A stretch of DNA of 64,000 nt from Sphagnum compactum. Its lineage: Eukaryota. The first letter of the stretch is position 1. Every line of letters starts with the position of its first letter. The position numbers were made by a program, and so were the translations under genes. Positions 1-49,452 of this stretch are shown here, in pieces. The stretch spans positions 22,062,213 to 22,126,212 of the forward strand of contig OZ234493.1 of assembly GCA_965153455.1 (NCBI GenBank), given 5' to 3'. The notes beneath the pieces are model-generated. The model was given only the letters and a program-made list of their open reading frames with translations, searched no databases and had not been told where the DNA came from.

Positions 1-3000
1 TTATAAAGTGTAATATGTTTGTGTGCAAAAGGTGGGTGTTTTCAAAAAATGAAATTCTTGAAAGATATTTTTGAAACAGTCATCATCATTTTTTCAAATT
101 TTTTGTTGTGAAACCCATCAAGTATGATGAAGGTTTTTTAAATAGAAAAAATTCATCAATTCTTACATTTAATAACACCATCAAATTAAGGGAGTTCCCA
201 AAGTAAGGACCCTTCAATTTACTTTGAAAAGTCCTTTACTTCAGGTAGGTCTTTACTTCAAAAACTCCCTAATTCTAAGGTGTTACCCTACACAAAAAAT
301 TGCTTTTGGTCAATATAGACACTTCAACAAGCGAAAATTCCCATTAGGCTTTGCAAAGCAAATTTTATACCGAAGGTTAAAAGCTACAGTAAAAAGCAAT
401 GTTGGATGGTTATCAAAAATGGTGTAGCCAAAAAGAAAAGGTCAACCAAACCTCATAATTCCACTACATATAATGGTGATGATAGAACAAAATACCAAAT
501 TGGTCAAAAACTATGCTTTGCCATGAAACCACCTATTCACAACTACATTACATATACTAGGGCTTAGGTGAATCAAACCTTTTTGGATTCAATTTCATTG
601 AGCATCCATGTATCTCCTAATAGCATTACTTCTTCCTACATCCCATCAAAATCCCATAAGTTTTTACAAGAAAGAAAATTCAACCCAATCCCACACCTAA
701 TGAATAAAAAATCAACAATTTCCCAAATGGAAACCAAGTGCAAACCCCAAATTCAAAGCGCCAACCAAGATACTCACTTCATCCCATCCCAGAATCTACT
801 TCCCAAACCCAAGCTTGGTCACTCTTGAGACAATGCCACTAAGAAATCATTCATGAACCCCCTAAATTTTGCGTCATTTTCACCGACAACTTGTAACTAA
901 CATTCTACCATAGACTCTATATCTCCAACACAATGGAATCTCAAAAAACAAAGCCATGCACATAAAACATTCATTTCCAAATGCATTCTACATCAAAACA
1001 ACTCTACTCAGAATCCAAAACAATGTTCATTGAAAAAAAAACTTAGCTCTTGCCAAGATTAAAGGAAAACAAAAAAAGTTGTTCCACTAATGAATCGTCC
1101 TCCTTCAAATAGTTGAAGTTCCAAATCACCATAAAATCTTGCCAACCAATTGGAACCAAGACTCTACGATCCACCATGAAAAGCAAAAAACAAACATGAT
1201 AAACTTGTAAGCTCATATTTTAAAACATGGAGACCAAGATGCCCACATTCTTCTTCCTTCATGATTGTAAACACTTGTAAACATAACATAGAAAATAAAT
1301 ACTATTTGTAGCAAAGCATGATCAACATGAACGGTTATAGTGGTTTATCAAATATTGGATTAAAGCAACACCTTTTGAACTTTTTACCTAAGATTTCCTT
1401 TTAGGTCACAATGGAACCTAATAACTGGTTATTTTCGATTACATATAATTACAAGTTTTTCCAAAAAATCAAATTTCGAATTTTGATATAAAATTGCAAG
1501 GTTTTAAAAAGTTGAAAATTGGTTTTAATATATAATTGCAAATCTCCAAAAAATTCTAAGAACTGTGAGATTAATAGCCTACTATAACTATTAGTCTTTG
1601 GTAAATTATTTTGTGAAAACTTCTAGTTTTTTGAGGATTTTTCAAAAAACTTGAATTGAATGTTCTCTAATTTTTAAAAAAGAAAATACAAAAAAATGGG
1701 ATTGGAGGTTCTTTGATTTCCATTCAAAAAAAAACACTAGAACCTAAGTTATATAAAAAAGAATCATATAACCACCAAACATTAATACAAAGGTCACACA
1801 TTTACTAGGTTGATTATCTTGAACTTTTGGTCTTTGAGTTTTATAAGTAATCAGAGAGGAACTAGGATAGTACAAATTAACTTCAACCATAATTATTTTA
1901 TTTGTAGAAATGTGGATTTTTTTAAAAAGTATTATTTTCAAAGATTTTTTTTATGAAATAAAATAAAAAATCTTCTAGAATACTTTTAAAAATTTATTTT
2001 CAACATGCAATCTTTATTTAATACATAGATAAATAAGATGTATGTTTTTAAAAATTATGGTGGTGTCTTTCTCCCATTTTATGATTTTGTGTATTTTGTC
2101 TATTGCATTTGCATTTCAAAACTTTTTGATCATATCAAGACTTTGGCAGGTATGGAATTTGGACTTTGGAGCTCACTTTTCATTAATTCTCAATTGATCT
2201 AATTCTAAGTTTGTCAAAGATCAATGAATTCAAATTGATTTCTTTTTGGTTTGAAATTCTTGGGTTTTAAGGATTGTGCATCCAACACCTACCATGGTTT
2301 TTCCTTAGTTTTGCAATCTTGACATTTTGGCAAAAGAATTCCAAGAAATTTGCAAAATTAATCAAATTTACACTAGAAAAAAAATTCAAAAATTTTCGAA
2401 CTATTGTTTTCAAAAAAATTAAAAAATTGTTGGAAAAAATCCATTTATTACTTACATTGCATCGTCCATTGGAAACCCATTATGATTTAATTGTGGTTGG
2501 AACTAGTGTTGGGTGGGTATTAAAACTGAAACCTAATAACCAATGATTTCAAAGATGTATAATGATGATTTTCAAAAAAAATCAAATAACCAGTTAATAA
2601 TGAAACACAATTTTCAAAAATTTGAGAATCAATTATGATATACAACCACCTGTCTCAAAAAAAATTTAAAATTGATCAAATAACATTCTACAAAATTGTC
2701 AATTATTTATTGAAAACCATTATTTTTTTAAGCTTTTAAAAGTTACATTATTGGAGGTTTTTTGATTCTGAAAGTTTAAAAAAAAAATTGGAATGGGAAT
2801 TATAAAAAATTAGATAACTACCCAACATTATTTAGAACCACAAACTAAGTCATCAAGGTTCCACCTTAATTACCTATCTTGTAAACCCTCCTATTTACAC
2901 CGCACATTACATAGGCAACTACTTATGTAGGTGGGCAAGTACCATAGGTAAGTAGGTAGAATTTCCACCCAATGTCATTGATAAAAGATGTTTTAACTTA

Positions 3001-6000
3001 AGTGGGAAAATTAGTGCATCGGATGGAAAGGTTTTTGACAAATTCATATGGCCTTTGAAGGCATTAAAATTTTATATTAACCACAAACAATAGTGTGTCA
3101 TTGGAGAATATGCATCTTAAAATGAACATTGTGACTTTTACCCACCTAGCCATGAGAAAAAAATGGAAATCGATGTAGACTTAATTCAAATCTTCTAGTA
3201 TGTATGCTTGCAATGTACAAGTGTGGATGGGTGACATTAAACTTAACATAGGGAAATAGGTAGGAGGTTTAATGTTTGTGTTATGGATCTTTGCAATTGA
3301 ATTACTTGCAACATGTGAGTTGTGCGGTGCTTGGGACAAAGGTAGATGGAGAGTTGGAATGTATGAAAACTAATCATATATGTGAGAGATAGTTAGGTGA
3401 AAAAGTCAAATTGGTTCCATCTTTTGATTAAACAATATTTTGAATTGGAACCTTTTTTTCATCCCTAAATGTTTCCAATTGCATTATGCATATTCCCATT
3501 CAAATACGTAATTGTTCCCATTTATGATTCTCAATTCCTCTTAATTAGTTCATTATTGTGTTCCCCATGTGTTTTCATCATTTATCCCATATTCTTTGCT
3601 TAATGTTCATGTATTTCATTCCTCAAGCTCCCATTTGTTCTTTGTATTTGCTTACAATGGCATTATTTTTTAATATTCTTTTCTTAAAATTGTACCATTT
3701 TAACTTGTATAAGTAAGTCAAATTAAAAATGTTATAACATTATCTATCTATAATTATGAAAATTGAATACATTTTTGGCTAATTCAAAAAGATTATCACA
3801 AAAAGAAAACTTGAACTTTGGATGGATTCATAATTAATTAATGTGAATCACAATATCAATGAATGTTGAACTTCCTATATCCAAGTTATTAATGATCATT
3901 GTATGACAAATTATACATCCTTTCAAATGAAATAATAATGTTATGCCCTACTTTGGTATATGCATCTTTAATCATTTTTGCATCATAATCACTTTATTCT
4001 ATGTATTGTATTACAAATTAAGCATCTTCAACACATGCCTATAAAAAATGAATTACTTTTGAAATTTTGATGCCAAAAATAAAATAAACTTGAATATTCA
4101 AAAATATATTCTATTTTTCTTTGAACGAAAACACTCATTTTGGAATTTGAAAACTTTGTGAGCAAAAAAATAAGGGTCTCGTATATTGGTTGTAAGATAA
4201 AAATTATAAATCAATTAGTTATATAATGGGATCATGTTTATTATCAAAGCCCAGATACACTTAATATTGGGTATGCATTGATTTTAAGTATTAAAAAACC
4301 ATTAGGAAAAATATAACATACATGTACAAGGGACTTAGGTATTACTTGTTAATAAGTCCATTTAATTTTTTGTAATTCAAAGTTTGCAAAAGTTTATAAT
4401 GTCACTTTAGGTTTTGAATTTGATTTCAATTTTGGGGGAAAAAAAATGTCACAAAAAGGTTGGGGAAGTTTCTTGGATGAAATAATGAATGTTGTTAAGG
4501 ATTCCTCCTTGGCAATGTGATGTTAAGTTGAGTATATAAAAAGAATCATGATCTTATTTATGTTAAATGGTTGTTTGCCTTGTATACGTGTGCATGTGGA
4601 TAGATTGTGCATCTTTCATTACTCTTCATAGCTTCAACTAAAACTAGAAATAGAAACAAATGTATGATATAAAAATTCAATTCAAACATATTAAAATTTA
4701 AATTAAGTTTAGGGTGGTTTAAATATGTGAATATTAAAATTTAGATGATAATAGGGTGGAAAAATTAAATGCACCCTCACATAATACTCCTTAAACAATA
4801 TCCTATCTAATGCAAAATGTAAAATTTTAACATAGAATCAAAGATATTTTCCTTAGGATTTTCCCTCATAATTTTTTTCCTTTAATACTTTTGAAAATTA
4901 AAAAATTTCTATAAATGATATATTAGTGTGAAAGCTACAAAGATACTATGGTATAGACCATTAACCTTCAGAATGATTGGTGAAACATTATAAAATGTAT
5001 TCATGCACAAATTTTTGAACTTTTTACATTACAAATTTCATCACACAAATTGTATTTGTATTGAAAAATTGATGATAAAATCCCTTCAAATATATAAAAA
5101 TATTTAAATAGTTAATGGATGTTAAATTCTTTTTTTCATCTAGGCCTATTAGGCATTTAGATTACATTTCCATGACATTATTTCAAAGTTTATTTGATTA
5201 TGCAAGCCAATAGTTTCTAAAAGTTCATTAATTCATCTCATGAATGATACTTTATTTTATTCAATGTTTTCACTTCATAATCTAGCATGTTAAGCACATA
5301 TAAAGTTAGCATGATCGATTATCATTTGTGTTTAATGATTTTAATACAAGTATATTTCAGAAATAGATATATCAACATTTACTTATTTTTCAATTAATAC
5401 TTAATAATACTTGGGCTCCTCATTGTTCTACATTATTAGCAACAATCAATCTAACATAAGGTTGGAATATTGATATATTTTCATTTATTTTAATAAGTTT
5501 ACAATATCAAAACAAAATTCAATGATCATATAGATTTTCCGTGAAATCATTTATGCCTCCATTCATTTATATTCCAAAATTCAATTTATGACAATCTTTA
5601 ATCTACAATGTTTGAGGTGGGTGTTATAAGGTGGATTTTCAACTTGCAATTTTAAGTTCCTAAATTTAGTCAATACCATGTGAAATAATATGTGGAAATA
5701 TATTATGTTAGAAATCGTGTCATAATAATGTGTTTACCCATCATGATGGTAAAATTATTTTTTAATCATGTCGATGACATTATTGTTTAAAAAAAAGACA
5801 GTGTCATGACAATTTCATATTATGTTTTTTATTATATCATGGTAATTTTCATGTTTATGTTTATTCATAATGTTTTGGCAATTTGTGAAATGATCTAATC
5901 AAATTTGTTATGTGGAAATTTGTGTGTTTTTGTTCATTGATCATATTTTGACAATTTTTGAACTTATAGAATCAAATTTGTCATGAATTTTTTTGTGTAA

Positions 6001-7059
6001 ATGTGCATTGTTCAATATTCATGTTGCATTTCACAATTTGTGTTGTTGTGTCATTTTAATTGTTTTGCAAGATAATTATTTTTTTGTTCAATATCATGTG
6101 ACCTAAATTGAATTCAAGTATGTGTTGGGAGGACCAAAAAAATTCAATTTCTACATGTGATGATTCAAAAGTGATGATATGAAAAGGCAAATATAAAAAG
6201 ACATTCATGTGAAATCATCTTTAGAAATTGTCATTGAAAATGGACAATTTAGAGAACCTAAAGTTGCTCCCCTTAAGCCAACTCTTGTGTATCATTATCA
6301 TTAGAATTATGGATTAGTTCGAAATAGGCCCATGAGATAATAATCTTAAATTATAATGGAGTTCATATTTACCTAGTTTTCACTTTGTTGCTAATTATTT
6401 ACATGTATAAAATGTCCATCACCTGTGTGAAATTTTCTTTTGTGTTACAATACCCCAAGATTTCATTGACCACTACGCAAAAGCAACAATGTTACTAACA
6501 AATATATGTACTATCTTTGCAGAGTCACCAACGCATTTATGACACCATTTTGCATAGAAACATACATTATGAGCCATCTTCCAACTTGAGTTTAACCTTT
6601 TTTTTTTTTTCCTAAGGCAACTTCCTTTTCCTTTACTAACATTTTTTTATTTCCCAAGAGTCATCACCTTTTTTTTCAACATTTTCACCACCATGGTTTA
6701 GAATTTCCTAATATCTTATGAACTATTCGTTGACAAAGAAATATAATTGTGCCATCCGTTTTTCTCCAGTTTTTAAAAAAAAAAAAACATGAACACACCT
6801 TCAACTAATTGAAGTTTATGGCAAAAATGTACTAAATTATAAACATGTTCAAATCACATTAACATATGAGTGCTTTAGAATGCATCTACCAATTGAAAGA
6901 GCCTTAATGTTCACACAAACATTTCATGTTTTGTTATGTGTTATGATTAGAACTCAACATTATTATTTAAACATTTCCATCTATTACATTATAATGGAAC
7001 TTGTATACATTAATTTGAGCTTTGCGTTGTTACACACTACCAATGACAATCAACTGTTT

Positions 7060-7385
7060 TATTTTTTCTTATGTTTTCATTTGGTTTTCAATTATTCATC
7101 ATTATTTATGTCAATGTCAAACTTAATTTAAATTAATATACAATTCATGGACTTGAAAAAACACATGTTAATTTGTTTTTTCATATCCATGTTGGTGAAT
7201 AGGGGAAAATAGTGAGGTAGTTATAAAATGGAGGTATTTATTAGGAAAGGTGGGAAATAATTATTAAGAAGTTCATAGGAAGAGGAAGCAATTATTAAAA
7301 AAAGATTGAAATAGTTAGGCTTGACAATGAGGTAGCTATTTTGAAATTGTTTTTGGAATGGTCCATGGACAACCATATGAAGGAT
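7060..7385. repeat. Dispersed AT-rich repeat (probable non-autonomous TE remnant); related copies at ~30985-31285 and, inverted, at ~61660-61795 and ~62435-62500
   Basis: Shared blocks such as ggttttcaa-ttattcatcattattt/catgtcaatgtcaaa, catgttaatttgttttttcatatccatgt and gtccatggacaacc align by eye between copies. Confidence 0.7.
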
Positions 7386-8669
7386 TCCGAAAAATCCCCA
7401 TATACCAGTTTTGATTACTTATCATTTGAACATTTCCATCTATTATACTATAATGGTTGTATATATTAATTTGGATGAATTACAACCATTAAATAATGTG
7501 AAATTAAGTTTGGACATATAAACATGCACATGATACAAAGGGAGGAGGGGGGAACAAAAAGAGGAAGTATACCCCTTCTTTATTACAACAAGGTTTTTGA
7601 AATATTGGGAAGTTTTTTAAGTTATAGGAGGAACCTCTAGTTCTAGGTCTTAAAATTTTCAAGGGATTGGTTTTAGTTTAGTTTTGACTTTTATTTTACA
7701 AAAATCAAATATATGTTTGGTTCTAATTTTTTAATTTAGGGGGAGATTTTGGTTTTGATCCCTTTAAAATTTCAAATTAACTTGGTTCAAAATTTCTAAT
7801 TAACTTGGTTCCAATTTTAGATCCATAACCTCTAGTTTTGGGTAACCTTTGGTTTTAGTTTCAATATGCAAAACACAAAAATCTTCAATGTGAAAAATTT
7901 GAGCTTTTATTCCAAGAAAAGAAAAGGTTATTACAAAGGTTTGAAAATGTCAAATTAGCTTATTTTTACATTCTAAACTACACTAGATGTTCGAAGGTCC
8001 AAAGAAATTAAATAAACAATAATGCGAAAACCTAAACTATTATTCTTGGATAGACCCCCAACTTTTATTGTGGAAAATGTCCCCAATTTTTTATCTATTA
8101 GTTGTTTTGGTTGGTAGCCAAATTTGGCAAGGTCCTTTTTTGGACATTGTTATTGTTATACCACCTACCTCACCAAATGAAGAAAAACCTTGTTCTAGAT
8201 ATGGGAAAGAGTAGTTAGCAAGACAATTTGCAATAATATAACAAAATGCACATTTTAATTTCAAACATTGTGATAGTTCACTTGTTGAATGATTTCAAAT
8301 TTTTTTTGATGTACAAGGTCTGAATCTAGGTGAAAACACATTATGGCGATCCCCTTTTAGCCTTTTTTGATATAATATTATAGTATATACCTTCTGATCT
8401 AATGCATTTAATTTTGGGTTTAAGTTTTGTTGTTCATGCTTTAAGATTGAATATCCAAAAAATTCATTGACACCATTAACTTAACATCATGGCAAGCCCA
8501 ATACGGTCTATTATAGAAAACCAAGAGAACCAAATCAGAACAAGGTGATTTCACATCATATTTTGTTAAACAAAGGGGGAAATACTAATGTTGAAAGTGT
8601 GATTAGCCCCTTCAAAAGAAAGATTGCCTTAATCCCCTTCAGACCACTACCTTCAACATTAATCTTAGT

Positions 8670-33642: not shown

Positions 33643-34572
33643 TGGTCCATTTCTTGTGAACTTCATGGCACACTAGTGTAGCCTGTGCCATTTGTGAACT
33701 GGTTACCAAACTAACTTTTCCTTTCAAAACCATTTTTTGTAATATAATTGAATCTCCAACGACAAAAACTACGGTGGTTTGTGGGATCTCAATGTGACAA
33801 ACAAAACAAAACAAACAAACAACTTTCCTTCATAGATAGATTTCCTCTTTTAACTATTGCTGGTTTGAACTTGCAAGAAGGGGCGGAGCCACTTCTGTGA
33901 TACCTGAATCTATTCATCCATTGCTCCACATGATTCCTCAGAGTTCCTGGAGCGTCCCTTGTATGCACAGGTGCATACTAATCTTCATGCTTCTGCCAGA
34001 TAATGGGTGCATCATGATGCATCTAGAAATCTTCCCCTCCACAGACATTCAAATCTCACATGATGTTACTTCACTAGGTTTGGCCCAGGATACTGCTGCG
34101 GTTATCAATGTTATTCAGTTTGCAGGCCCACTGTTCAGGGGTGGTATTTTGATGCACTAGATTTCAGTTATACAGTTTACTAGCCGTGACAAGTTACAAC
34201 CAGGCTCAAAGCACAGTTTAACAGATGACAATGATGTCAGATTCTTTTAAGAATACATCCAAAGTACCTGAGATGGTGCAAAACTTGAGAAGGTTCACCT
34301 TCTGATGAACTCAATCACAAAATAGCCACAATGTTATATTTGCAATACGGAATCCACATTGCCTGCATAAGTATAATGAGCACAATGGTGACAACAGCCA
34401 AAACATAATTCAAAGTCACGTGGTACTAGTTTTCAGCATTCAGCGAACTGATCTTGCCCTCTTGGACTCAAACAAACATACTCTCCTACAGTTGACAATT
34501 ATCAGCACCCCCAAGAATAAACAACAGTCGCAAATCTTGCAGCACTCCTGCAAATGCAACTCTGCTCCACCA

Positions 34573-35079
34573 TTACTGTGAAGAGGTCCCACAAATATAA
34601 CAATAGACTACTTGTCCAAATTTAACTAACAAGGCCTTAAAGAGGGCCTCCAATAGGAAGGGCGCAACCCCAACTTGCCATGCAGTGCGCCAGCCAATTA
34701 TCACAGCCAGGCGCATGCCACCGACTGCAAGAACTGTAAGACTGGCAGCACTCAACCAAAATAGCCCCATGATGTCTTTCCCACTGGCATGACCAGCCAA
34801 CCAAGCAGCCAACAAAAAGCCCCACAAATAACCTGAGGACTTCTCTGTCAACAGTATGTGGTGGCCACTGCTGCCCCCAGCAAAAATAGGCAAGCCGCAG
34901 GCACCACCCAGAAGGTAGAGTAGCACAGCACCCATCCCCAGGTGTGAACCAAGGACAACTGATAGGGCCAGGACCGCAAGTGACTGAAGAGTGATGGGAA
35001 CTGGATTACCAGGCCTGTATATGCACACCTGGGCTGCAGCTGCTAATGCCATGGCACCAAGAACACAGCGCAAGACCAT
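34573..35079 (-). other. bioY: BioY-like (ECF biotin S-component) domain within the final LAF3 exon
   Basis: [78 protein letters not shown] matches the BioY pattern (PVPxTLQ, YLxxGxxGLPxFAGG, GYLxGF, GVxPF..K) with about six hydrophobic segments. Confidence 0.85.
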
Positions 35080-38000
35080 GGCCTTCCAATACAAAGCTTC
35101 TTTGGCACCCTGCTTTATGGATGACTTCATTGATGGGACCATGCTTGTATTGTGCATCAAAAGACCTCCAATGTATGTCGCCAGTACAGATTGTGCATCA
35201 GATTCAGTGACATGATCATGGGAAAGCACAACAAAATCAGCATACTTCCCTGGAGATAAAGATCCCACATAAGTATCCATGAAACTTGCATAAGCAGCTC
35301 CCACAGTATACCTGCAAGAATCATCTGTATGTGTTAGAAGTAATAAATCATTTCAGGAAGAAGACTTTGCAAGTTCATGGAAATCCCAGAGGATTTAGAA
35401 GAGCACACTTGCAACACAATGTAACAAGCAAAAATAATATGGCCAAAAAGCAGTAAGTATAGGGCAAACGTGCAGATGAAACATGATCAATCACACCAAT
35501 CTGCAGAGCATGGCTCTGAAATGTGTGTGCCCTGCATTTCTGGTTCTCATCTCAAAGAGGTTGAGAAGTGGGAGAGGCAATATGACATTTTGCTCTCTTT
35601 TCACGTTGTGGTTTCTTCAATATTCACACCAAATCTGCAAGATAATGGCCATAAAACATATGTACTCTACATTTCTGGTTCTCCTCTCCGAGCTTGAGAA
35701 TTGGGAGAGGTGATATGACATCTTGATAGCTTTCTTTTCAAGTTGCGGTTTCTTAAATATTTCTTCATCCACAGACATATGCAACTGACCTTATTGATCT
35801 GCAAGCAACTCAGGTGAACCTAGCAAGTGCTTCTCTTGTAAAGCCATATGACTTGGTTGATGGCACAGGAGTCAAGGAGAGATTTCCTTGCGATAAGCTG
35901 TTCTGCAATGTGATATGTCCTCACACATGCACAGCCACAACTTCAGCATGAACAAATAAAACATAAGCCCAACTTGCAACTCATAAGAATACTCAACTCA
36001 CCCTGTCAAAGCAGCTTCACTTGAGATAATTTCAAATGGAATCCACGGTGACTGCCAGCCATTGGGGGTCCTTCTTGTTGCTGCTTGGATGCCTCTTAAG
36101 GGATCAAGTGGGGACACCTATGCCAGAAATATATATAATATGTTCCATCAAGCATAAGTCTATCAGTCTCATTATCTTCTCTTAACTCAGACGGGTTCCA
36201 ATTCCAGACAATCCTCACAAAGTTGCAAAGAGAGACTGCTATGGTAGAGGCCATGAGGAAGGTGGACACTTGATAATGGCTTTCTAAGGAGCATTGAGTT
36301 TGTCTTCTAATATTGTCAAACAGAATTGCCCCAGAGTAGCCAGTGGGTGCCACCATGCATAATCTTCACCAACCATGATAAGTTTCATGACAATGGCAGT
36401 TTGCAGGATTATGAGGCAAATGTCAAGTTGAACTCACTGGCCAATCTGAACCCAGTGCAAGTTGTGTGCCATTTCCTAGAAGTGAATTGAAAAGGTAAGA
36501 ACTCTGTAATGCTCGCTCCTCTCCTAGCTTCCTTGAAGCATACTCCGCATCATCCAGCAGGTGATATGGCTGCCACCAACATAGAGAACATGAAACCAAG
36601 TTAATTACTATGCAAAGCTAATCATAGCAGGGAATGTCCTTTTGTACTATGTAGCCCTTTTTGCTGAATGTACCTGGTCAAAGCTTCAATATATTGCAGC
36701 TATGAAAGGTGTAGACATAAGATCTGCATATGTTAGCACTTACTTGCACAGAAGCAATCACACTACTTGCTCCAAAATGTCTAGGTGCCCCACCTGAAAG
36801 ATGCTGGGCATGTTCAATCTGTCTCCACCAACCAGCCCAGAGAGACTAGTTACCCCCATTGCAATTTATCAGAAAATGCAACTTCTATGCTGACAGTGAA
36901 TTATAGAATCAAATGCAGACAGTGGACTTTTTGCAGATAGTGCCAAAGATGTGCACCATTCCAATCAGTGGTGCGAGTGTCTGCTGAGACAAGAATTGAC
37001 AGACCAAACTGTCTGCAAAGGACAGGTACTGACACCTCATAACATCCTGCTCAAACAATAGAGGAGTCCCATTCAGATATGTCTTGCAGAGTTGCAATTA
37101 CTCTGAAACGTCGATCTCGGTGCCCATTCTTAGATTTAACAGTGTCAAACATTGCTAAAACTTGATCATTTGCTGCATCTCCAATGGCATGAACTGCAAC
37201 CTGCAAAACCAAGAGACCACACCACACAGGACATTTACCAACATCTTGCATGTGGAGACAGGATGATGTGGCAAGAGAGATTCACTTTGTAACTAAACAA
37301 CCATGATCCAGCCTCATACACAATCAATTTGTTGTACAGGCTGCTCCTACCTGAAGTCCAGCATTGTCTGCTTCTAAGACAGCTTCAAGAAGCCAGTCAG
37401 GATCTGAGACATGAAGCCCATAATTGGTATTATCATCTGCATATGCCTGCCAGAAATGGCATACCCATTAGGAATGCATTATTTGATGTTGAAAAGGAAG
37501 TAGTCTGTATATGTTGTTCTACCAACACAGGAACCCTCCAAGAAATCTGTCAGCCAAACACTTTCTACAATCCCATACCTTTCCTATGTTCATTCTCATT
37601 AGGTCTATAACCTCCTCAGAGTTTTGCTGAAAGTAGCAGTACGTACCTCATGAAACAGAGCAGATCCAGATCCCAGACTCCCATCAGCAAAAGCCTTGAC
37701 ACCGCCAACATGCAACCAATGGCTGACAGGGGATCTCCTCTGCTCGACCAATGCCTGCAGGCATAACCAGATGTACTGTATGCCTTGTCCCTTGACAGAA
37801 ACTTGGTTCACTATGTACAGTAGATTATGACTCCAGGACATGTAATGGGACATTAATAGAATTTCCTGATCAGTGAGACAGCATTCTCCTCATGCAGTAG
37901 ATCCCAGACTAGTCTGATTTTACACTTTGAAAACTTCTCTTCAGGTACAGCTTGGGAGACTCACTGCAACAGCAGGCCAGGTCTCCAGTGGTAGAAATGC

Positions 38001-41000
38001 AGACACCCTCACACACATGGTCCCAGTTGCCTCTGCCCACATGTAGACATCTGACAAAAAGAAAATGCACAAAGAAGATAGGGGTATAGTCTTTGCCCTG
38101 ACCAGTAGGTTCTTGATAAACCCCGAAGAAGTCCTTCAGAGCAATATAATTGTGACTTCTCCTGTATTCTTAGTTGATTCCGACATGAATTTGAGGACAT
38201 ACAAGGATATCTTAACATAACAAAAAGAGTTGGAAACTTGATACCATTAAAATCATCCCAAGCTTGCTGTGCAGGCTCCCCTGGGCTAAAACGCCCAAAA
38301 TCTACCACAGAGGTCACACCTCTGGCCAAGGCGAGTTTGCCTGCTGCAATCAGTGCTGCCCTCCGCTCTTCAAGTGATGGTTTAGGAACAAAACGAGTTA
38401 CAAGGCTCATTGCTGTGTCCACAAACACCCCTGTTGGAACTGCAGAAAATACAAGTTGATCATCATCCAAGAGCAAGGGCAGCTAAAAGCTGATATGGCC
38501 TTGCTAAGCACATTACAATGTCTATGTGAACAAATATAGATGTCCTTCCCAGCAGAAAAAGAAGATAATATGATGACAAAGGTGCACCTTGATTGTCCGA
38601 TCACTATGTTTAATCTCACACTTGCAGTAGGATAGTGTACACAGAAAATGTGCACTCTCTTGCTGCTTAAGATGTCAATGTGCAACCAAAAGTCAGTTTC
38701 AAGAAATGTACCCCCATGGATATCCTTCTGGATGGTGCCCCCTTGTGGCTCAGGTGTATCTTGGGTTATGTTAGCCAATTCCATTGCCACAGAGTTTGCC
38801 AAACACATGTGCCAATCTTGTCGACAAACCCACACCTGCAATGGTCAATGCATTCACCAGTTGGCAGTCACAAGTGACAATCTAGTGAATTCCAAGCCTA
38901 GACTCTGCTGCTTGCCTAACAAAGACCATCAGGAAAAATGATAAGTCTACCAGTGTGTGAGCAATCAGCAAATCGTACTTCAAATGTGTTGCCAATAATC
39001 TGTTGCAACAGTTCTTCAATGTCTACTTCTCACTCCAACTGTTGAATCTATTTTTCCTGAAGGACCATAATCTTTCCTCATGGAAACACCTATAGGCTGC
39101 TGTAGTGTAGCTAAAGAGATCATCAGTAATTATCTGATTGCAACATGCAACTTGTTATAACTTACAGGATGGCTCACTGTCGCACTATCGATCCATGAAG
39201 CTTTTGGGAGTTCCCCACCCCAATTCTCATTGTTCCAGTTTGATCCAAGGATCCAGTGTCTGTTCTTGGTGCCTGCAACATCACATTAAAACTCTTTAAG
39301 TTGTCAACACGTCACAGGCAAATCTTTCTAAAAGGAACTTGATTGTGACCATGACATCATGACTGGTGTCTAGATTTTATGGACAAATCTTTCAAAGATG
39401 CTCATAATCATACATCTCTAAACTTCAGACGCTATTCCATGACCGATAGATCTACAATGAAGCCAACATAAGTTTGAGACCTTGTGCAGCAAGCCTGAGC
39501 TTGGCTGTAAATTGAGCACAACTGTGTACACCTCCAAGATCAACATGTCTCATCTGTCATGGCAATCCCACCAAGAAACCGATATCAAAGAGATATGCAG
39601 TTCTCAAGCTCCATACCAGCTCTGACAGACCAGCAACTTTCATTAAGACTAGAAATTACAGATGCAACACAATTCAGTCTCTCACAAGATGTGTTGTCTC
39701 TCCTTACAAGAATATATTGAAGCTACTGTTTTATGACTTCACCTTTCAATGCTAAGCATGAACAGCTGTGCAGTCAGATGACCTTCTGGGCACAGAAGTA
39801 TGATCACTCACAGGTTATGTCTTCTCACATACCATCAGCCCACCAGAAATGAAATGGACATGTGAGTCGATAAATCCTGGTACCACAAATCTGCCACCCA
39901 AATCCACAACCTTTGTTTTTGTGCCGATGACTGCAAACTGTTTCAAAAGAACAAGTCATGGATAAGAGAAACCGTGTCTAATGAGAAAGTCAATCATTTT
40001 TCAAGGGGCTGTATAACAGCAGTGGTCCCTTGTCTACATGGAGAGCATTCGTGGTGATGAACCAGCCATGAGGTTGGTAAATCAGAAACAATGTCAAGCC
40101 TTCAAATTGCAGGTTACTGACCTGAATTTGACTGGAGTTGCCAATCTTGGAAACTTGGCCATGAACAACTGCCATGAATTCTGCCCAGGGTTGCCTAGGG
40201 TTTCCTGTCCAAATTGTAGCATTCACATACACAATATCTGCAGTCTCGTCTTCCTCCCATCGCAAGGCCTTCTTCAGATCTTCCTTCAGGCCCAGATAAG
40301 TATCTGGGTTCAACAACCCTGCACATACAATTTCTAGCAGAATGAATTTGACAACTTTGTTGATTACATCTTCGACATGTCACCTGTGCGAGAAGGTGAA
40401 GTGGCGATGTTTTGCAGAGGGCTGTATGTCTCTGGCAAGTGTGAGTGACATTCATAGCTCAGTAGGTAGCCCACAGCCATAGCAATATGCTTAGGGTTTG
40501 GAGCTGGCCATCTTCTGCTAGAGAAGCTGTCTAGAATTGAGGATTATGTTTGAAGGGGGATAATACGTCCCTCATTTTTGGGTGATGACAGAGCCTGCAA
40601 CATTCGAGCTGTCCATGATCCAAGACTGCCACGAATTCAGCGAGACATGAGAAGGACCTTCATCGCTTCTCAGTAACAAGCTCATGACCCATGAGCACAT
40701 GGTGATATCTATTTTTCTTGAATCGAACGGAGGACATTTTTCTTCCGACACGCTAAACAAATCCCCTAATCCGATTTTTAAATTCTTTTCCTTTAATCTG
40801 GGCTCCTTGCTATATAATTCAGCTCCTTGTGAATAATGTCTCTTAAACAATCAGTTCACCAAAAGCATTTTGCTTTTATCCCCTGCTCTTGTCTTCTTCA
40901 ACCAAATCGGACTTTTTGTCCTTGAAGCCCGAAATCACAAGCTTCCGTATGTAAAGAAAGCAGGAAGAGGCATTCACCTACGGAAACGGACGAAATGACA

Positions 41001-41053
41001 ATCAACACTGGCAGCAGCAGCCCCTGGAGCATGAGCAGGCCGCAGCGACCCAT
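34573..41053 (-). CDS. LAF3: LAF3-like (YtcJ-type, Amidohydro_3) amidohydrolase with N-terminal hydrophobic anchor and a fused C-terminal BioY-like membrane domain; 15 exons
   Basis: ATG at 41053 ([22 protein letters not shown]). Exons encode [85 protein letters not shown] and [32 protein letters not shown]. The last exon (35311-34573) continues in frame for about 190 more residues. Confidence 0.92.
35535..35762. repeat. Diverged ~90-bp direct duplication in the last LAF3 intron
   Basis: catttctggttctc..ttgagaa.tgggagagg..atatgacat..tcttttca.gttg.ggtttctt.aatatt occurs at ~35535 and ~35670. Confidence 0.8.
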
Positions 41054-42433: not shown

Positions 42434-44987
42434 ATGGCGGCCGTTGCTGCGACGGTGCAAGTGCAGTCCCTTGGCACAGTCTGTGTGCAGGGCTCGTCAT
42501 CTAGACTGCTGGGAGGCAAGCCTTTGTGCCTTGCTCCACTCCCCTCTGCCTCAACCCGAGGTGTTTCTCTGGTCGTGCGCGCCGGCTCTGGCTTGCCTTC
42601 TCCCACTAAGGTAAACTCCTTTTGCCCCCCGCCCCTGCAACCCGCCCTTCGCTTCTATTTCGATTCTGTTTGGCAGTCTGAATCCAGATGGAATTCTTGA
42701 GAGTGCCAATCTGCGCGATTTCCACATTTTCAGATATTTTTCTCGTAGCTTTAGCTCAAGATTATTGAACTTTGAACCCGAGCACGACCTCAGTTTAGAA
42801 CTAGGTAGAGGTCCCCTGATTTTGGGTCGGGTTTTCGGTTCTTTTCGCTTGTCTTTCTTCAATTTCTCTTCTCAAGTTTGTAGCTACTAAATCTGCTAAT
42901 TGATAGTGAAGTGAGCTTTAGATTAGACCATTGGTGAGCGGTACTAATGGACTTGCCTATTTCTCATTTTGGAGATTTGGTATGCTCGTTTGCCTTTGGC
43001 GGTACGCTGTTTCAAGGAACATTATTCCCGGTTCTCTCGCTTTGGGTTTTCTTGGTAAACTGTTGTTCCATGTTCAGTTCAAGGAGGCTGGATTCTTGGT
43101 ATGGCGGATATTGCAGTTTCCACCTCTCATGATTTGGAGAATTTGTTGTATTTGTTTTTCACACGAAGTTGGAGATTGTTGGCTTGAAGTTGTCTCTCTG
43201 AGTCTATACAGTACAGTAGAGGTGTCTAGTTCTCTGGTTGTGGCGTTCTCTGATTCGCAATTTTGAAAGAATTTCTCATTTGTTTGTGTCAGTTGTGAAG
43301 CCAGGGAATGTTCGCTTCACTGTTGGCTCCGTGTGGTTTCTGGGTGCCTTCTAGTAGCAGATGTGTCCAATTCAGGGTGTAGCAATATATGTTCATTGCA
43401 ACACTGAAGAATCAACATTCCAGATAGCCTGGCAAAGGCTTGCTGTGTTTTCAGGTGTTGGGTATGTCTGTAGGTGGAATGAGTTGTGGGGGTGAAATTG
43501 TCTTGTTACAGGATTCAAACAGGGCATTGATCTTCGCTTCCAAACAGAGTCTCTCTTATCTTGATGGCAGGTACAGATTACCACTTCCTCTTAAGGCCCT
43601 TTTATGTGACACTTCCAAAGATTCCAAAGATATGTATATCATTGTTCCAATTAGGTGGCAAAATCCTCAGATTTGTCTTCTTCGGTAGATTTCCTGACAC
43701 ATAACTTCTTCCTCATGCTAGTCAGTCTTTAAGTAGTTTATGGGTACCCCACTGTAGCCATTTTTGCCAACTTCCACCTCTTCACCATGTGTAAGTCAGA
43801 TTTTTTTTCATTGTCTTGTCCAGTCTCTTGTGTGTCCCTTTTTCAATCTAAGTTATCCTTAGCAAGAAGGTTTCTAGATAATTTTTCTATTTTCAAACAT
43901 GCCTGTTATCTCTGACTTCATGTATCAAGACCAAGACTCAATTATGAGCTGAATTGTTGTGTTCAAAGCTAGAATATCCAGGAGAACACAAAAAGGAAAA
44001 AAACCAATAAGAACCAAACAAAAAAAAGGCAGGAGAGAGGATAAACTTTAACAGGATACGTTTAAGAGAATGATCTTTTCAGGAAAAATTGGCCATTCAG
44101 GATCAAGAAGCCCTTGAAATAAACAATTTTGAAGAATCCAAAAGCAGAAATCTGCTATTTTCCCTCTTTGTGGATGTGTTGTCAGATCTGAAATCTCTTT
44201 GACCTTATGAGTAGGTCATCTCTCAGTTATATTGTGGCTGACTTCTATCATGAGCATTGAGAAGTTCTCAATACTCATGAAGATATGTTCTTGTTCCAAT
44301 TGAAGTGAGACAATGACTATCTTGACATTCTTTAATCTAACAAGCTGTTTTTGCATTTTCAGTTTGCCAGGAGACTATGGTTTTGATCCACTGGGTTTGT
44401 CCGACCCAGATGGTGCTGGAGGTTTCATTGATCCCAGCTGGCTGTCATATGCGGAAATCATCAATGGCCGGTTTGCCATGCTTGGAGCTGCTGGTGCAAT
44501 TGCCCCAGAGATCCTGGGGAAATTAGGATTGATTCCACAAGAGACTGCACTGCCATGGTTCAAGACAGGAGTGATACCACCAGCGGGGACTTATGACTAC
44601 TGGGCAGATCCTTTCACATTATTTGCGTTTGAGATTGCCCTCATGGGATTTGCAGAGCACCGCAGAGCTCAGGATTACTACAAGCCTGGATCCATGGGCA
44701 AACAGTACTTCTTGGGTTTTGAGAAATTCTTGGGAGGCTCTGGAAACCCTGCCTATCCTGGTGGCCCTATCTTCAACCCTTTCGGCTTTGGCAAGAATGA
44801 GAGTGAGCTTAAGGACTTGAAAATCAAAGAGGTGAAGAATGGGCGGCTGGCCATGCTTGCAATTCTGGGCTATTTCATTCAGGCCATATTCACTGGTGTT
44901 GGGCCTTTCCAGAATCTGTTGGATCACCTTGCTGACCCTGTGCACAACAACGTCCTTACCAACTTTAAATTCCCATACTTATACTAG
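42434..44987 (+). CDS. LHCA3: Photosystem I chlorophyll a/b-binding protein 3, chloroplastic; exons 42434-42610, 43512-43570, 44363-44987
   Basis: Transit peptide, then [83 protein letters not shown]. Splice phases are consistent. Confidence 0.97.
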
Positions 44988-46180: not shown

Positions 46181-47284
46181 TTCTGCAAAATCTCCTCTGT
46201 GCACGGCCTTTTCCCAGGTGTCGTTCCTTGAATGGCTAGAATATTTCTACGAAACGAATGGATTTTTGTGTATTTTCTATCTTCGCTCAATCTCCAATCC
46301 CTTAGATAGACATGCAGCTCCAGATTCTGTATACGCGCAAAAACCGACTTCTCGAGAATAGAATATAACGTTTTTTTTAGCAAAAACTGCGCAAAATGTC
46401 AAAACTCATGAGAATCTGGACGTCTGGACAACCTGAGGTCGAAAGTCATCCGCCGGCTGGACAAAGAGGGCATGACGAGTGACGGATTTTTCCTTTGGTT
46501 AACTTACCACCAGTTTTCCTTGCATCACCTCTGCGTGGTGCTACCATTGTTGTTCCGTCGCTGGTGTCTACACGAAACTCCGTTCGATTCTGGTTTCGTC
46601 ATCATGATTACTTTGGAGGCAAGGTGTTTGTTGCTCAATTTTTTCCGCTCTTCGGAGTTTTGACGAGAATTGTCGGGACGAGTTGAAGTCTTGTAAGGAA
46701 AGTTGGAAACCTGCGACCAAGTGCAGAAACGAGCCACTCCAAGGTACTCCTCTTCTTTGATCCACCGTTTATCAACCTCATAACACAACTGGTGCACAAG
46801 AAACTTCTAATTTTTTCGGCTTCGTGGATTTGTTCTCTCGAAACATATTTAACAGAGGGCTTGATAAAGGATGCAACGGAATTTGGGACCTGCTCGTGAC
46901 TGATCAGGTATACTGAAGTCATGACCGGGTGCCCAGCACCATCGGATCACTTGTGGCCCTCTCTCCCACATCCTCGTGCACACCCTTTGGTGTGCGTTTT
47001 TGCGAAACTTCAGAGATGAAATTTGTGTTTTTCTTATTACTTCGTTGTTCTAGTGAGCTATTCTACACGTTCATGAAACCCTCTTTCCTACATACGACCT
47101 CGTTGATCTCACGGCTGATCAGTGGAATACTTGGTTCGAATAGTCAATTGTTGAGAAATGCACAGATGCGTTACATTCCGAACTGGTTGCTGAAAAGCGT
47201 TGCATCATGTATTGCGCAAATGCGCATGGATGCAGCTATGGCTTATGTTGATGTTCAGTTTCCGTATCTGTGTAGGCAACAGGC

Positions 47285-49452
47285 ATGGAACAGTTCAGAG
47301 ATCGTGTGAAAGAAGTCGCGATCATTGTTACGGCGGTTCGTGAGGGTGCGACAGTCAGCATGATTAATGGAAAGCAATGTGAGAGTTTGGCAAGTGTGTA
47401 CGACGGGATTGATGGTTATCTTAAATCATTGGTGGAGATGGATGCTGCAAATGACGTACGCTTATTGCCATTGCTGGATGAGATTATTCGTGTCCTTGAG
47501 AGGGGAAAGGTCCTAGTCTTGCAATATGGAAGTGCACAATGGTTCGAACTGGCAGTGACCAGGGGAGATAACCGGGAGGCCTTTAAGGAGATCCATTTGT
47601 TGCTTGAGACTAACATGAAAACATTGCAAAATCACATTTCACCTGACTTATACCGGCCAACGAACTTGTGGTATGACATATCAGACGCAAAACAGAAAAG
47701 ATGGGGAATTGCAAAGGCCGATCATGACAAGATACTGGAAAAATTGCAGATGTTTTATAAGAATTTGCCAACAGCAATTGATAAGCTCAAGGGAACACCC
47801 CAGATGTACAACCTCCCTATCAATATGCTAATAGATTCGCGGGAAGTTAAATGTGGGAAAAAGATTGGAAAGGGGGCTTATGGGTTGGTGCGTGAGGCAT
47901 ACTGGCTTGGATGCAACTTTGCTGTCAAAATCATAAGAACAAGGGATATCGATGCATTGAGGAAAGAGGTGGGGATCCTTGCAGAACTTAGCCATCCACA
48001 CATTGTGCAGCTAGTGGGCTTCTCTAGAGGTGATCCGACTAGCATGATTCTAATGGAGTTAATGGATGGGGATTTGCGTCATCTCCTTAAAGATCGAGTT
48101 AAATCTACTCCACAAACTCCACCATTTCCACCAAAAGTAGCCGTAGACATCATCTCTCAAATTGCAGCAGGCATGGCATACCTACACAAACAGGGAGTTT
48201 TCCATGGAGACCTCAAAGCCTCAAATGTGCTTGTCAACCATCGTGGTTGCCACATTGAAGCTAAGATTGCAGACTTTGGGGTGTCACAAACTGTACAGCT
48301 CACCAAGCGTTTTGATACAAGCAAACATAATGATGGAGATATTGCTTCAGGCTCTTCTGTTTATTCAAATTCATCATTTTCTGGAATCGTTGGGACAACT
48401 GGTTGGAGGGCACCAGAGGTGTCTGATATCCAAGTGAGTATCTAGAAATCTAATTCATAGTCAATTGTTCTGGGGAAGGGATTTGGGGGTCGCAAACTAA
48501 GGTTGAAGTTTCTAGACATGAGAAAAAGTTTCTTTCAAAATGAAAGATTCTGATTCTATTGAATCCAAAATGTGATTGAGAGCCTCTTCCCTTCTATAGA
48601 TGTGCCTAATTTCCTTTCAAGCAAATGGAATGTCAAGGTTATTTCAACCAATGCTGCTTCATTTTGGTAATAAGTACTAACCTCAGCGCAGGGCCTATTC
48701 CATTTCGTGAAATCCTTTGCATAGGGTGGGCCCATATGGCAGGACCTCCCACCTGCGCAGGCTCACCTCACTTATTACACTGGGTAATGCCCTGGCAACA
48801 GGGCATTACCCTACACCTTATACTGGCTCAGCTTGTATTTGGATGAGGTGTTTGCAAGTGGCCTTTCATACAAAGACATTCTTGATGGATAGGAGTAGAA
48901 TCATATTGATTGTATTGATCTGTAACAGGATGATTATCTTGTTGACCACCCAGACCATAACAGTAGTTTTATGATAGATCAGATCCATTGTTGTTCGTAA
49001 ACAAGGGCTAATCCTATTTTGTTTAGCTTTGCAACTCAGATTGAACAATGCAACATCTCATGTTGGGTGTTTTCTTGGGTCAATTGTGTTCATGCTAGAC
49101 AAAAGAAGGGGAGACGTCGTCGATAAAACCAACATATACAGGAAAAGCAGATGTATTCAGCTTTGCAATGACTTGTTATGAAGTGGTCTCAGGGAAACTT
49201 CCATATAGCAGTGACATACCACGACAGTCAATCAATGAAATGGTCAGGGAAGGTGTGAGGCCTGAATTGCCTGAAGATATAAACACAAGGTTATCCAGCC
49301 TCATCCAGAAGTGTTGGCAAACTGAAGCTCCAGAGAGGCCTACATTTGAAGAGATTTGCTCCGATCTACAAGAGATGAAGGCCTTGGAAACTCAAGCTCA
49401 AGGGAGGCAGAAATTTCAAAAGAGGAAGGAAAGTAGGTGTACTATCAGCTAA
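47285..49452 (+). CDS. Ser/Thr(Tyr)-like (TKL-type) protein kinase with N-terminal MLKL-NTD-like helical domain; exons ~47285-48418 and ~49099-49452
   Basis: N-terminal amphipathic region with INGKQCESLA; kinase motifs GKGAYG, AVK, HGDLKASN, DFG, GTTGWRAPE, then YTGKADVFSFAMTCYE..CWQTEAPERPTF. Donor GT at 48419, acceptor AG before 49099; an intervening micro-exon is not excluded. Confidence 0.88.

Follow-up and report, generated by a model that had tools for sequence, protein, structure and literature searches.

A Sphagnum gene joins a LAF3-type amidohydrolase in frame to a prokaryote-type BioY domain

Introduction

BioY, the biotin S-component of energy-coupling factor (ECF) transporters, is, as far as we are aware, regarded as prokaryotic, like the other ECF S-components. 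LAF3 (LONG AFTER FAR-RED 3) has a role in phytochrome A signalling and a perinuclear location in Arabidopsis; we know of no LAF3 enzyme for which the substrate has been identified. Here we analyse a gene in which a LAF3-type amidohydrolase continues in frame into a BioY domain. It lies on a stretch of 64,000 nucleotides (nt) from the peat moss Sphagnum compactum (NCBI GenBank assembly GCA_965153455.1, contig OZ234493.1, positions 22,062,213 to 22,126,212 of the forward strand), which we call the window and whose first letter is position 1 in all coordinates below.

The closest described systems are cited here from excerpts of the sources. All eight solitary BioYs that were tested transported biotin in Escherichia coli without an ATPase module (PMC4049904). 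For the green lineage, a single BioY is reported, encoded in the chloroplast DNA of Mesostigma viride, and no S-component is known for ABCI10/ABCI12, the ECF module of plant plastids (PMC1781420, PMC6828968). A bacterial-type BioY acquired by lateral transfer is reported from the pelagophyte alga Pelagomonas calceolata (bioRxiv 10.1101/2024.10.30.620910), and bacterial 5TMR sensor kinases have S-component-fold domains fused to signalling domains (PMC11109136).

Results

Architecture of the fused gene

The gene was modelled by tblastn of plant LAF3 proteins, which marked an exon series from ~40244 to 35161, by splice-site selection and by joints in RNA data. Its parts, all on the reverse strand, are as follows.

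34573..41053, reverse strand: whole LAF3-BioY gene, 15 coding exons, product of 775 amino acids (aa)
41053-40978, 40318-40122, 39937-39833, 39553-39481 and 39272-39166, reverse strand: exons 1-5
38835-38712, 38439-38245, 38050-37965, 37754-37647 and 37446-37351, reverse strand: exons 6-10
37200-37102, 36818-36744, 36569-36438, 36117-36002 and 35311-34573, reverse strand: exons 11-15
40978..41053, reverse strand: exon 1, with the start codon and a hydrophobic N-terminus (from sequence, hydropathy and an RNA joint)
37036..37101, reverse strand: 66-nt extension of exon 11 with an in-frame stop (alternative donor at 37036)
35164..35311, reverse strand: C-terminal end of the amidohydrolase in the last exon (YTVGAAY...VLATYIGG; from the Pfam Amidohydro_3 tail and the plant LAF3 alignment)
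35131..35163, reverse strand: join of 11 residues with no stop codon, where the short tail of LAF3 normally lies
34576..35130, reverse strand: complete BioY domain, 185 aa, six helices, with its own Met (MKSSIKQ) (from Pfam, AlphaFold2 and Foldseek)
35004..34624, reverse strand: Pfam match to BioY (PF02632)
34573..34575, reverse strand: TAA stop of the fused frame (from sequence)
34294..34572, reverse strand: 3' untranslated region (from RNA depth)

The spliced model opens with the ATG at 41053 and closes with its sole stop at 34573; all of its introns are GT-AG. For introns 6 and 7, and for the canonical donor of intron 11 (37102), placement relies solely on protein homology and GT-AG sites. 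The last exon, which follows an AG acceptor and lies within a stop-to-stop frame of 259 aa (35352..34573, reverse strand), translates into 245 aa that contain GVAPF..K and end in GTSSQ before the TAA. The original prediction, which was made from the letters of the window, had proposed an in-frame LAF3-BioY fusion in the final exon (35311-34573) of a 15-exon gene, with an intronless BioY block. The open frame, the motifs that it quoted and the Pfam match to BioY bear this out, as do the 15 coding exons, their GT-AG introns and an RNA joint that leads into the BioY exon.

The first 14 exons and the start of the last encode a plant LAF3-type amidohydrolase, as had been claimed. In a blastp search, the spliced model was 48.5-56.5% identical (48-57% in round figures) over residues ~52-580 to seven plant proteins, of which several bear the name LAF3. 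The motifs DSHVH, HAIGD, EHAQH and GSDWP, which we take to be the metal-ligand and catalytic motifs of the amidohydrolase, are all present and aligned with those of the plant homologues, so that their predicted integrity holds for all four. The N-terminus is a hydrophobic, signal-type segment, as in other LAF3 proteins (hydropathy and alignment), and looks like a signal peptide or signal-anchor. Five aligned plant LAF3 proteins stop 6-13 residues beyond the ATYxGG motif (6-11 in ungapped sequences), in agreement with the expectation from angiosperm LAF3, which ends soon after it, and all 27 LAF3 matches to the last exon as a query covered only its first 20-27%. The Met of BioY (35130..35128) lies 11 residues past the usual LAF3 end. 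What had been described as a linker of ~25 aa is thus a join of 11 residues, and the rest of that span is the native N-terminal tail of BioY.

Profile searches recognised both halves. In the last-exon fragment alone, the tail of Amidohydro_3 (PF07969; last 49 residues) scored under the cut-off, with an E-value of 1.3e-5. The BioY half matched PF02632 with an E-value of 3.2e-25 and 89.1 bits against a cut-off of 25, over residues 103-229 of the exon translation and profile positions 3-131 of 140. In a spliced transcript contig (L004, described below), the open reading frame (ORF) at 886-1683, which covers exons 12-15, gave 79.2 bits for Amidohydro_3 against a cut-off of 29.7 (E 5.9e-22) and 45.7 bits for BioY (E 7.9e-12), also above cut-off. 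The two families anticipated for a scan of the spliced protein were therefore found together on one spliced ORF.

The fold and the conserved residues of the BioY half agreed with the profile match. AlphaFold2, supplied with an alignment of 50 sequences, modelled the BioY part with a predicted local distance difference test score (pLDDT) of 95.8 and a predicted template modelling score (pTM) of 0.90. In a Foldseek search of the PDB, the only matches at E<=0.001 were the two BioY chains 4dve_A and 4dve_C (E 4e-6, template modelling scores 0.73/0.69), followed by the other ECF S-components FolT, PanT, RibU and ThiT. In the 50-sequence alignment, the consensus residue was kept at 8/8 invariant and 14/14 nearly invariant (>=90%) columns. 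No BioY model matched in an NCBIfam scan. Helix 1 contains an AxxxA motif, which in S-components serves docking on the ECF T unit (PMC11109136, as excerpted); the helix is so rich in Ala that the motif carries little weight. The C-terminal block is a true BioY of prokaryote type and is complete.

Expression of the fusion

The RNA runs that contain the last exon are labelled plant or moss metagenome. In a stranded poly(A) run, X24, 537 reads aligned to the gene, nearly all of them on its strand. Joint counts were taken from X24, for which 15 of 25 joints were listed. The joint between exons 14 and 15 (36002->35311), through which the transcript enters the BioY exon, was spanned by 17 X24 reads and was also present in X1, X2 and X3 contigs. 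Among the listed joints, nine others were canonical, with 3-16 X24 reads each (9-16 for eight of them), and the intron behind exon 1 (40319->40980) was spanned by 7. Read depth along the last exon was 39, 29 and 21, then 9.5 in 34294-34540 and 0 in 34047-34293; no AATAAA or ATTAAA was found in the 3' untranslated region. Transcription across 35311-34573 had been left for RNA data to settle: with 17 reads on the joint and depth that continued through BioY, a premature transcript end before ~35080 was not borne out. L004, a spliced metatranscriptome contig of 1683 nt, covers exons 7-15 and ends at 34852 within BioY; its last exon is 98.3% identical to that of the window. One spliced mRNA encodes the putative signal-anchor, the metal-dependent amidohydrolase, the 11-residue join and the six-helix BioY S-component.

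The same reads bear on the idea that the last exon harbours a separate BioY gene. In that case a transcript starting in intron 14 (35312..36001) or in the last exon would yield a ~185-aa product from the BioY Met, and the shared frame would be incidental. The bacterial start codon is indeed retained (MKSSIKQ), and P0030, a protein from Sphagnum troendelagicum, is annotated from that Met as a separate protein of 163 aa. X24 depth was 10-14 in intron 14 versus roughly 2-8 in bins that consist mostly of other introns, and the last exon, at 21-39, exceeded most upstream bins. The 3' bias of poly(A) selection could, however, give the same gradient, and the 17 reads of the exon 14-15 joint equal or exceed those of the other joints, so that much of the coverage of the last exon stems from spliced LAF3 mRNA. 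The X24 analysis reported no accumulation of read starts or ends. There is no stop or frameshift between the halves in the window or in the metagenome contigs L001-L004, which show no indel or stop in the join region (35131..35163); the prediction that the frame is open between the domains thus survived comparison with independent contigs. P0030 for its part belongs to a decayed lineage and is frameshifted near its end. We therefore regard a separate BioY gene as unlikely.

Further features of the reads concern single exons. At the exon 3-4 junction, a non-canonical joint with one extra G (39553->39813) had 5 X24 reads versus 3 for the canonical 39553->39833. Allelic variation or read mapping may account for it, or exon 3 may have a second donor. 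The 66-nt extension of exon 11 has a 2-nt deletion at 37077 in other samples. Some X24 reads at 36080-36113 and 37159-37202 matched only the 34-44 most conserved nucleotides of exons 14 and 11 and then diverged into sequence coding for similar peptides, such as LSTFETVVSK. This suggests that another, diverged LAF3 paralogue is expressed in the X24 sample.

Intact and decayed copies

One scan of metagenome contigs yielded eight loci, of which L001-L004 are intact and L005-L008 decayed. The intact copies are 97-98% identical to the window in the last exon, where they have no indel, and carry no stop across the codons covered; L001-L003 also lack gapped codons (L004 ends at 34852). The introns and 3' flank of L001-L003 contain 0-44 gap positions. 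Against the window, the ratio of non-synonymous to synonymous rates (dN/dS; Nei-Gojobori) in the intact lineage was 0.03-0.09 for the amidohydrolase and 0.11-0.17 for BioY. When each variable site was counted once, 19 were synonymous and 4 non-synonymous in the amidohydrolase (p 7e-9), versus 11 and 5 in BioY (binomial p 2.8e-4). The comparison of dN/dS among relatives that the original prediction had called for thus points to constraint on BioY, and both halves look constrained by purifying selection in the intact lineage.

The decayed copies, with 84-89% identity in the last exon, are broken. A genomic deletion of 386 nt (window 36167-36552) takes out exon 13, which holds GSDWP, and three stops interrupt the frame in each of L005 and L008. 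The last exon of L005/L006 shows deletions of 24, 41, 1, 6 and 13 nt, and that of L007 and L008 other lesions. The 41-nt and 13-nt deletions are shared by decayed copies, whereas further frameshifts are private. The 41-nt deletion (35149-35189) is present in L005, L006 and L008 and is bordered by the following element.

35149..35200, reverse strand: two copies of the 11-nt direct repeat TGATGCACAAT, at 35200-35190 and 35159-35149, flanking the 41 nt deleted in decayed copies

In RNA alignments, these 41 nt appear as a 'skip' (35148->35190). We rejected a small intron as its cause: the joint is non-canonical, is flanked by the 11-nt direct repeat and is present as DNA in L005 and L008. The skip is a deletion of the decayed copies. 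Since 6 X24 reads carry it, both forms of the gene co-occur in the X24 sample.

Relative to the window, dN/dS in the decayed lineage was 0.5-0.7 in both halves. L006 is a spliced transcript of a decayed copy, and this second lineage is an expressed pseudogene. The database proteins P0030-P0035 and P0058 belong to it and are frameshifted; P0030, annotated as a 163-aa 'Biotin transporter' of S. troendelagicum, is the sole named close relative. P0029 (275 aa, PF07969+PF02632) was considered as an annotated fused protein and rejected, as its N-terminus is a read-through intron in a prokaryote-style gene call on moss DNA. The intact and decayed forms may be paralogues, homeologues or two species.

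These comparisons also speak to whether the BioY tail could be a neutral relic, that is, a bacterial fragment that fell on the LAF3 stop codon and is tolerated because the enzyme works regardless or is redundant. Loss of the locus is possible, as the decayed lineage shows, unproductive splicing is common (see Discussion), protein searches found no fused relative, and the diverged LAF3 paralogue seemingly expressed in X24 means that the moss copy may be spare. A tolerated fragment fits poorly with the low dN/dS of BioY and its excess of synonymous sites, and equally with the lack of any indel in its 555 nt over four contigs, whereas flanks and introns have some. All 22/22 conserved columns are kept despite ~50% divergence from the nearest relative, and the fold is predicted very confidently. 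Moreover, once the gene is broken, both halves drift jointly. A neutral relic is accordingly rather unlikely.

Ancestry of the BioY domain

An exhaustive search of 1.84 billion protein representatives returned 5802 matches to the BioY domain. Beyond Sphagnum, the best were P0059 (50% identity) and P0060 (52%), at 108-117 bits, both of them stand-alone metagenome proteins, and no plant relative of this BioY other than from Sphagnum was seen in that search. Among the best 150 of the 5802 matches, all 150 were at most 257 aa long. Ten top clusters were looked up; four were named, all four as BioY, and one of these came from a Deltaproteobacteria metagenome-assembled genome. The ESM Atlas neighbours listed were bacterial BioY clusters, 100% Bacteria where taxa were known. 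With P0060 as a query on genome contigs, only partial relatives of 35-60% identity appeared, in Actinomycetota, Alphaproteobacteria and one cyanobacterium. In a sample of the cyanobacterial phylum, 62 of 201 genomes had a match; the best-scoring one reached 37% at 43.7 bits, and none of those listed exceeded 39-40%.

A quick maximum-likelihood tree of BioY sequences (135 rows, with long branches, of which only the broad picture is trustworthy) placed the moss BioY with P0059 and P0060 (support of 97 in the Shimodaira-Hasegawa-like approximate likelihood ratio test, SH-aLRT). It was split at 99-100 support from an alphaproteobacterial/actinobacterial group and at 99 support from 10 of 12 distinct cyanobacterial-phylum sequences; the other two do not group with the moss. 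GC content at third codon positions (GC3) was 0.51 in BioY versus 0.40 in the amidohydrolase, which could be a mild residue of a GC-richer donor.

The original prediction had left horizontal and endosymbiotic acquisition side by side. An outside origin fits the data, and, judged from these sequence comparisons, horizontal transfer from bacteria is more likely than plastid descent, because the sampled cyanobacterial BioYs are more distant than the metagenome BioYs. Under plastid descent, a cyanobacterial bioY of the streptophyte ancestor would have reached the nucleus by endosymbiotic transfer. The presence of bioY in Mesostigma chloroplast DNA, and its inferred presence in the ancestral streptophyte plastid genome (PMC1781420, PMC6828968, as excerpted), gives this route a starting point. 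Cyanobacterial BioYs, however, reach at most 39-40% identity (43.7 bits for the best-scoring, at 37%) against 50-52% and 108-117 bits for the metagenome proteins. They also mostly stand apart from the moss in a tree that was built without Mesostigma, and no other plant relative turned up among the 1.84 billion representatives. We consider the plastid route very improbable.

The domain is integrated in the moss genome. BioY shares an exon with host coding sequence and follows 14 spliceosomal introns; spliced RNA covers it, and plant genes flank it. The neighbours on the forward strand encode a chlorophyll a/b-binding protein (44307-44984; Pfam E 1e-43) and a protein kinase domain (47279-48442; E 7e-34). 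Since these flanking genes are of plant type, the locus is plant nuclear DNA. The idea of a misassembly, or of contaminating bacterial sequence fused to plant DNA, has only the bacterial affinity of the domain in its favour. Against it, the join recurs in 4 independent metagenome contigs and in its decayed form in up to 4 more (L007 begins just inside BioY, and L008 stops after ~130 nt of it), it is present in spliced RNA contigs and reads, and its surroundings are plant introns and plant genes. Such an error is hardly credible.

Intron 14 contains a tandem pair of ~137-nt units at 35491-35761 that are roughly 76-79% alike, as seen in secondary blastn matches of L001-L003, L005 and L008. Elsewhere, positions 1-8000 of the window are very AT-rich, with a GC content of 0.25-0.30 versus 0.35-0.47 in the rest.

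Discussion

We give a probability of roughly 0.6 to the following account: the locus is a chimeric nuclear gene of a Sphagnum-type moss, its BioY part came by horizontal transfer, and that part has the function proposed below. In the simplest history, a bacterial bioY ORF would have landed, with its start codon kept, at the stop codon of LAF3, with loss of the host stop. The donor may have been an unsampled, probably high-GC bacterium, and the transfer would predate the split between intact and decayed lineages. By analogy with bacterial solitary BioYs, the moss BioY may bind biotin or a close analogue and act without a dedicated ATPase, while the fusion would tether enzyme and transporter within one membrane. 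Because solitary BioYs transport biotin without an ATPase module, the domain most likely, on that analogy, binds and transports biotin as a module attached to the enzyme.

Several results weigh against this account. L004 keeps intron 6 and uses the donor at 37036, and is thus not a productive full-length mRNA. Intron 11 (36819-37101) is retained in an X1/X2 contig and has a depth of ~8 in X24. Among the 15 of 25 X24 joints listed, the only one for intron 11 is 36818->37036 (3 X24 reads, X3 contigs and L004), which adds a stop; the joint from the canonical donor at 37102 is not among them. Many transcripts look unproductive. The decay of a whole lineage means that at least some genomes can do without the gene, and the selection test on BioY draws on only 16 variable sites in closely related, non-independent sequences. 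A phmmer search with the BioY domain gave 0 matches among PDB sequences, so that the link to 4DVE is made by fold and Pfam profile only. As to origin, P0059 and P0060 are metagenome proteins, for which a eukaryotic source is conceivable. Topology raises a further difficulty. The N-terminus of bacterial BioY is cytoplasmic, and the hydrophobic N-terminus of the moss protein, with its Arg3, suggests that the enzyme sits on the lumenal or outer side, which would put the N-terminus of its BioY in the opposite orientation.

A bolder version of this function is conceivable, in which the protein is a self-contained biotin-salvage machine. Held in the membrane and working like a biotinidase, the amidohydrolase would split biocytin or biotinyl peptides, either in peat water or within a compartment of secretory or vacuolar type, and the fused BioY would capture the biotin so released and move it across the membrane. 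We consider this reading quite doubtful. A coupling of amide hydrolysis to BioY, which the original prediction had raised, is speculative, and release of biotin from an amide conjugate beside the transporter is the least supported step of the mechanism. If it were true, it would provide a first biochemical substrate for the LAF3 family and a salvage machine new to plants.

The original prediction had held the architecture to be undescribed, and nothing that we found contradicts it. Word-based protein searches limited to 430-2000 aa detected no fused relative (only plain LAF3, with 27 matches, and 0 with the BioY part alone), which is weak evidence of absence. A literature search found no published LAF3-BioY fusion and no Sphagnum BioY, though lists of horizontally transferred genes in survey supplements could mention the gene. 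An occurrence of 'BioY' in a Bathycoccus paper proved to be a misprinted company name. Both the architecture and a BioY in a land plant are new. The fusion appears confined to peat mosses, and the general question of the plant ECF S-component is thus not solved by it.

The gene matters in several respects. It is a rare case in which a land plant has a BioY that is nuclear, transcribed and kept by selection, attached to an enzyme of the host. It illustrates cleanly, and in a way that can be dated, how a bacterial ORF becomes an additional protein domain when a host stop codon is lost, and its intact and decayed lineages form a natural experiment. It also hints, in a testable way, that a biotin-related amide may be a substrate of LAF3-type amidohydrolases.

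Compared with plant LAF3 proteins (Amidohydro_3 / YtcJ-like family), the moss gene has the same motifs, N-terminal hydrophobic segment and multi-exon structure; it differs in lacking the LAF3 stop and in adding 185 BioY residues, whereas none of the 27 LAF3 matches has a BioY. With the solitary bacterial BioYs (PF02632; 4DVE from Lactococcus lactis), its C-terminal half shares the profile family, the six-helix S-component fold, the conserved residues, a length like the 170-220 aa of stand-alone proteins and the lack of attached dedicated BioMN genes. In contrast to them, it resides in a plant nuclear gene behind 14 spliced exons, is fused to a soluble enzyme with a signal-anchor and is only ~50% identical to its nearest relative.

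The Mesostigma bioY and the plant ECF module have in common with the moss gene a BioY in the green lineage and the question of the plant S-component. The moss BioY, however, is nuclear and fused to LAF3, the signal ahead of it is of secretory type with no obvious transit peptide, and the domain does not group with the sampled cyanobacterial BioYs in the tree. As in Pelagomonas calceolata, a bacterial bioY was probably taken into a eukaryotic nuclear genome; that organism is a marine alga and not a land plant, and the excerpted account describes a transporter gene and mentions no fusion. Finally, the 5TMR sensor kinases resemble the moss protein in using an S-component-type membrane domain as a module of a larger protein. 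They are, as excerpted, distant receptor families in which the membrane fold is mostly N-terminal, whereas the moss protein carries a bona fide BioY, C-terminal to a hydrolase and in a eukaryote.

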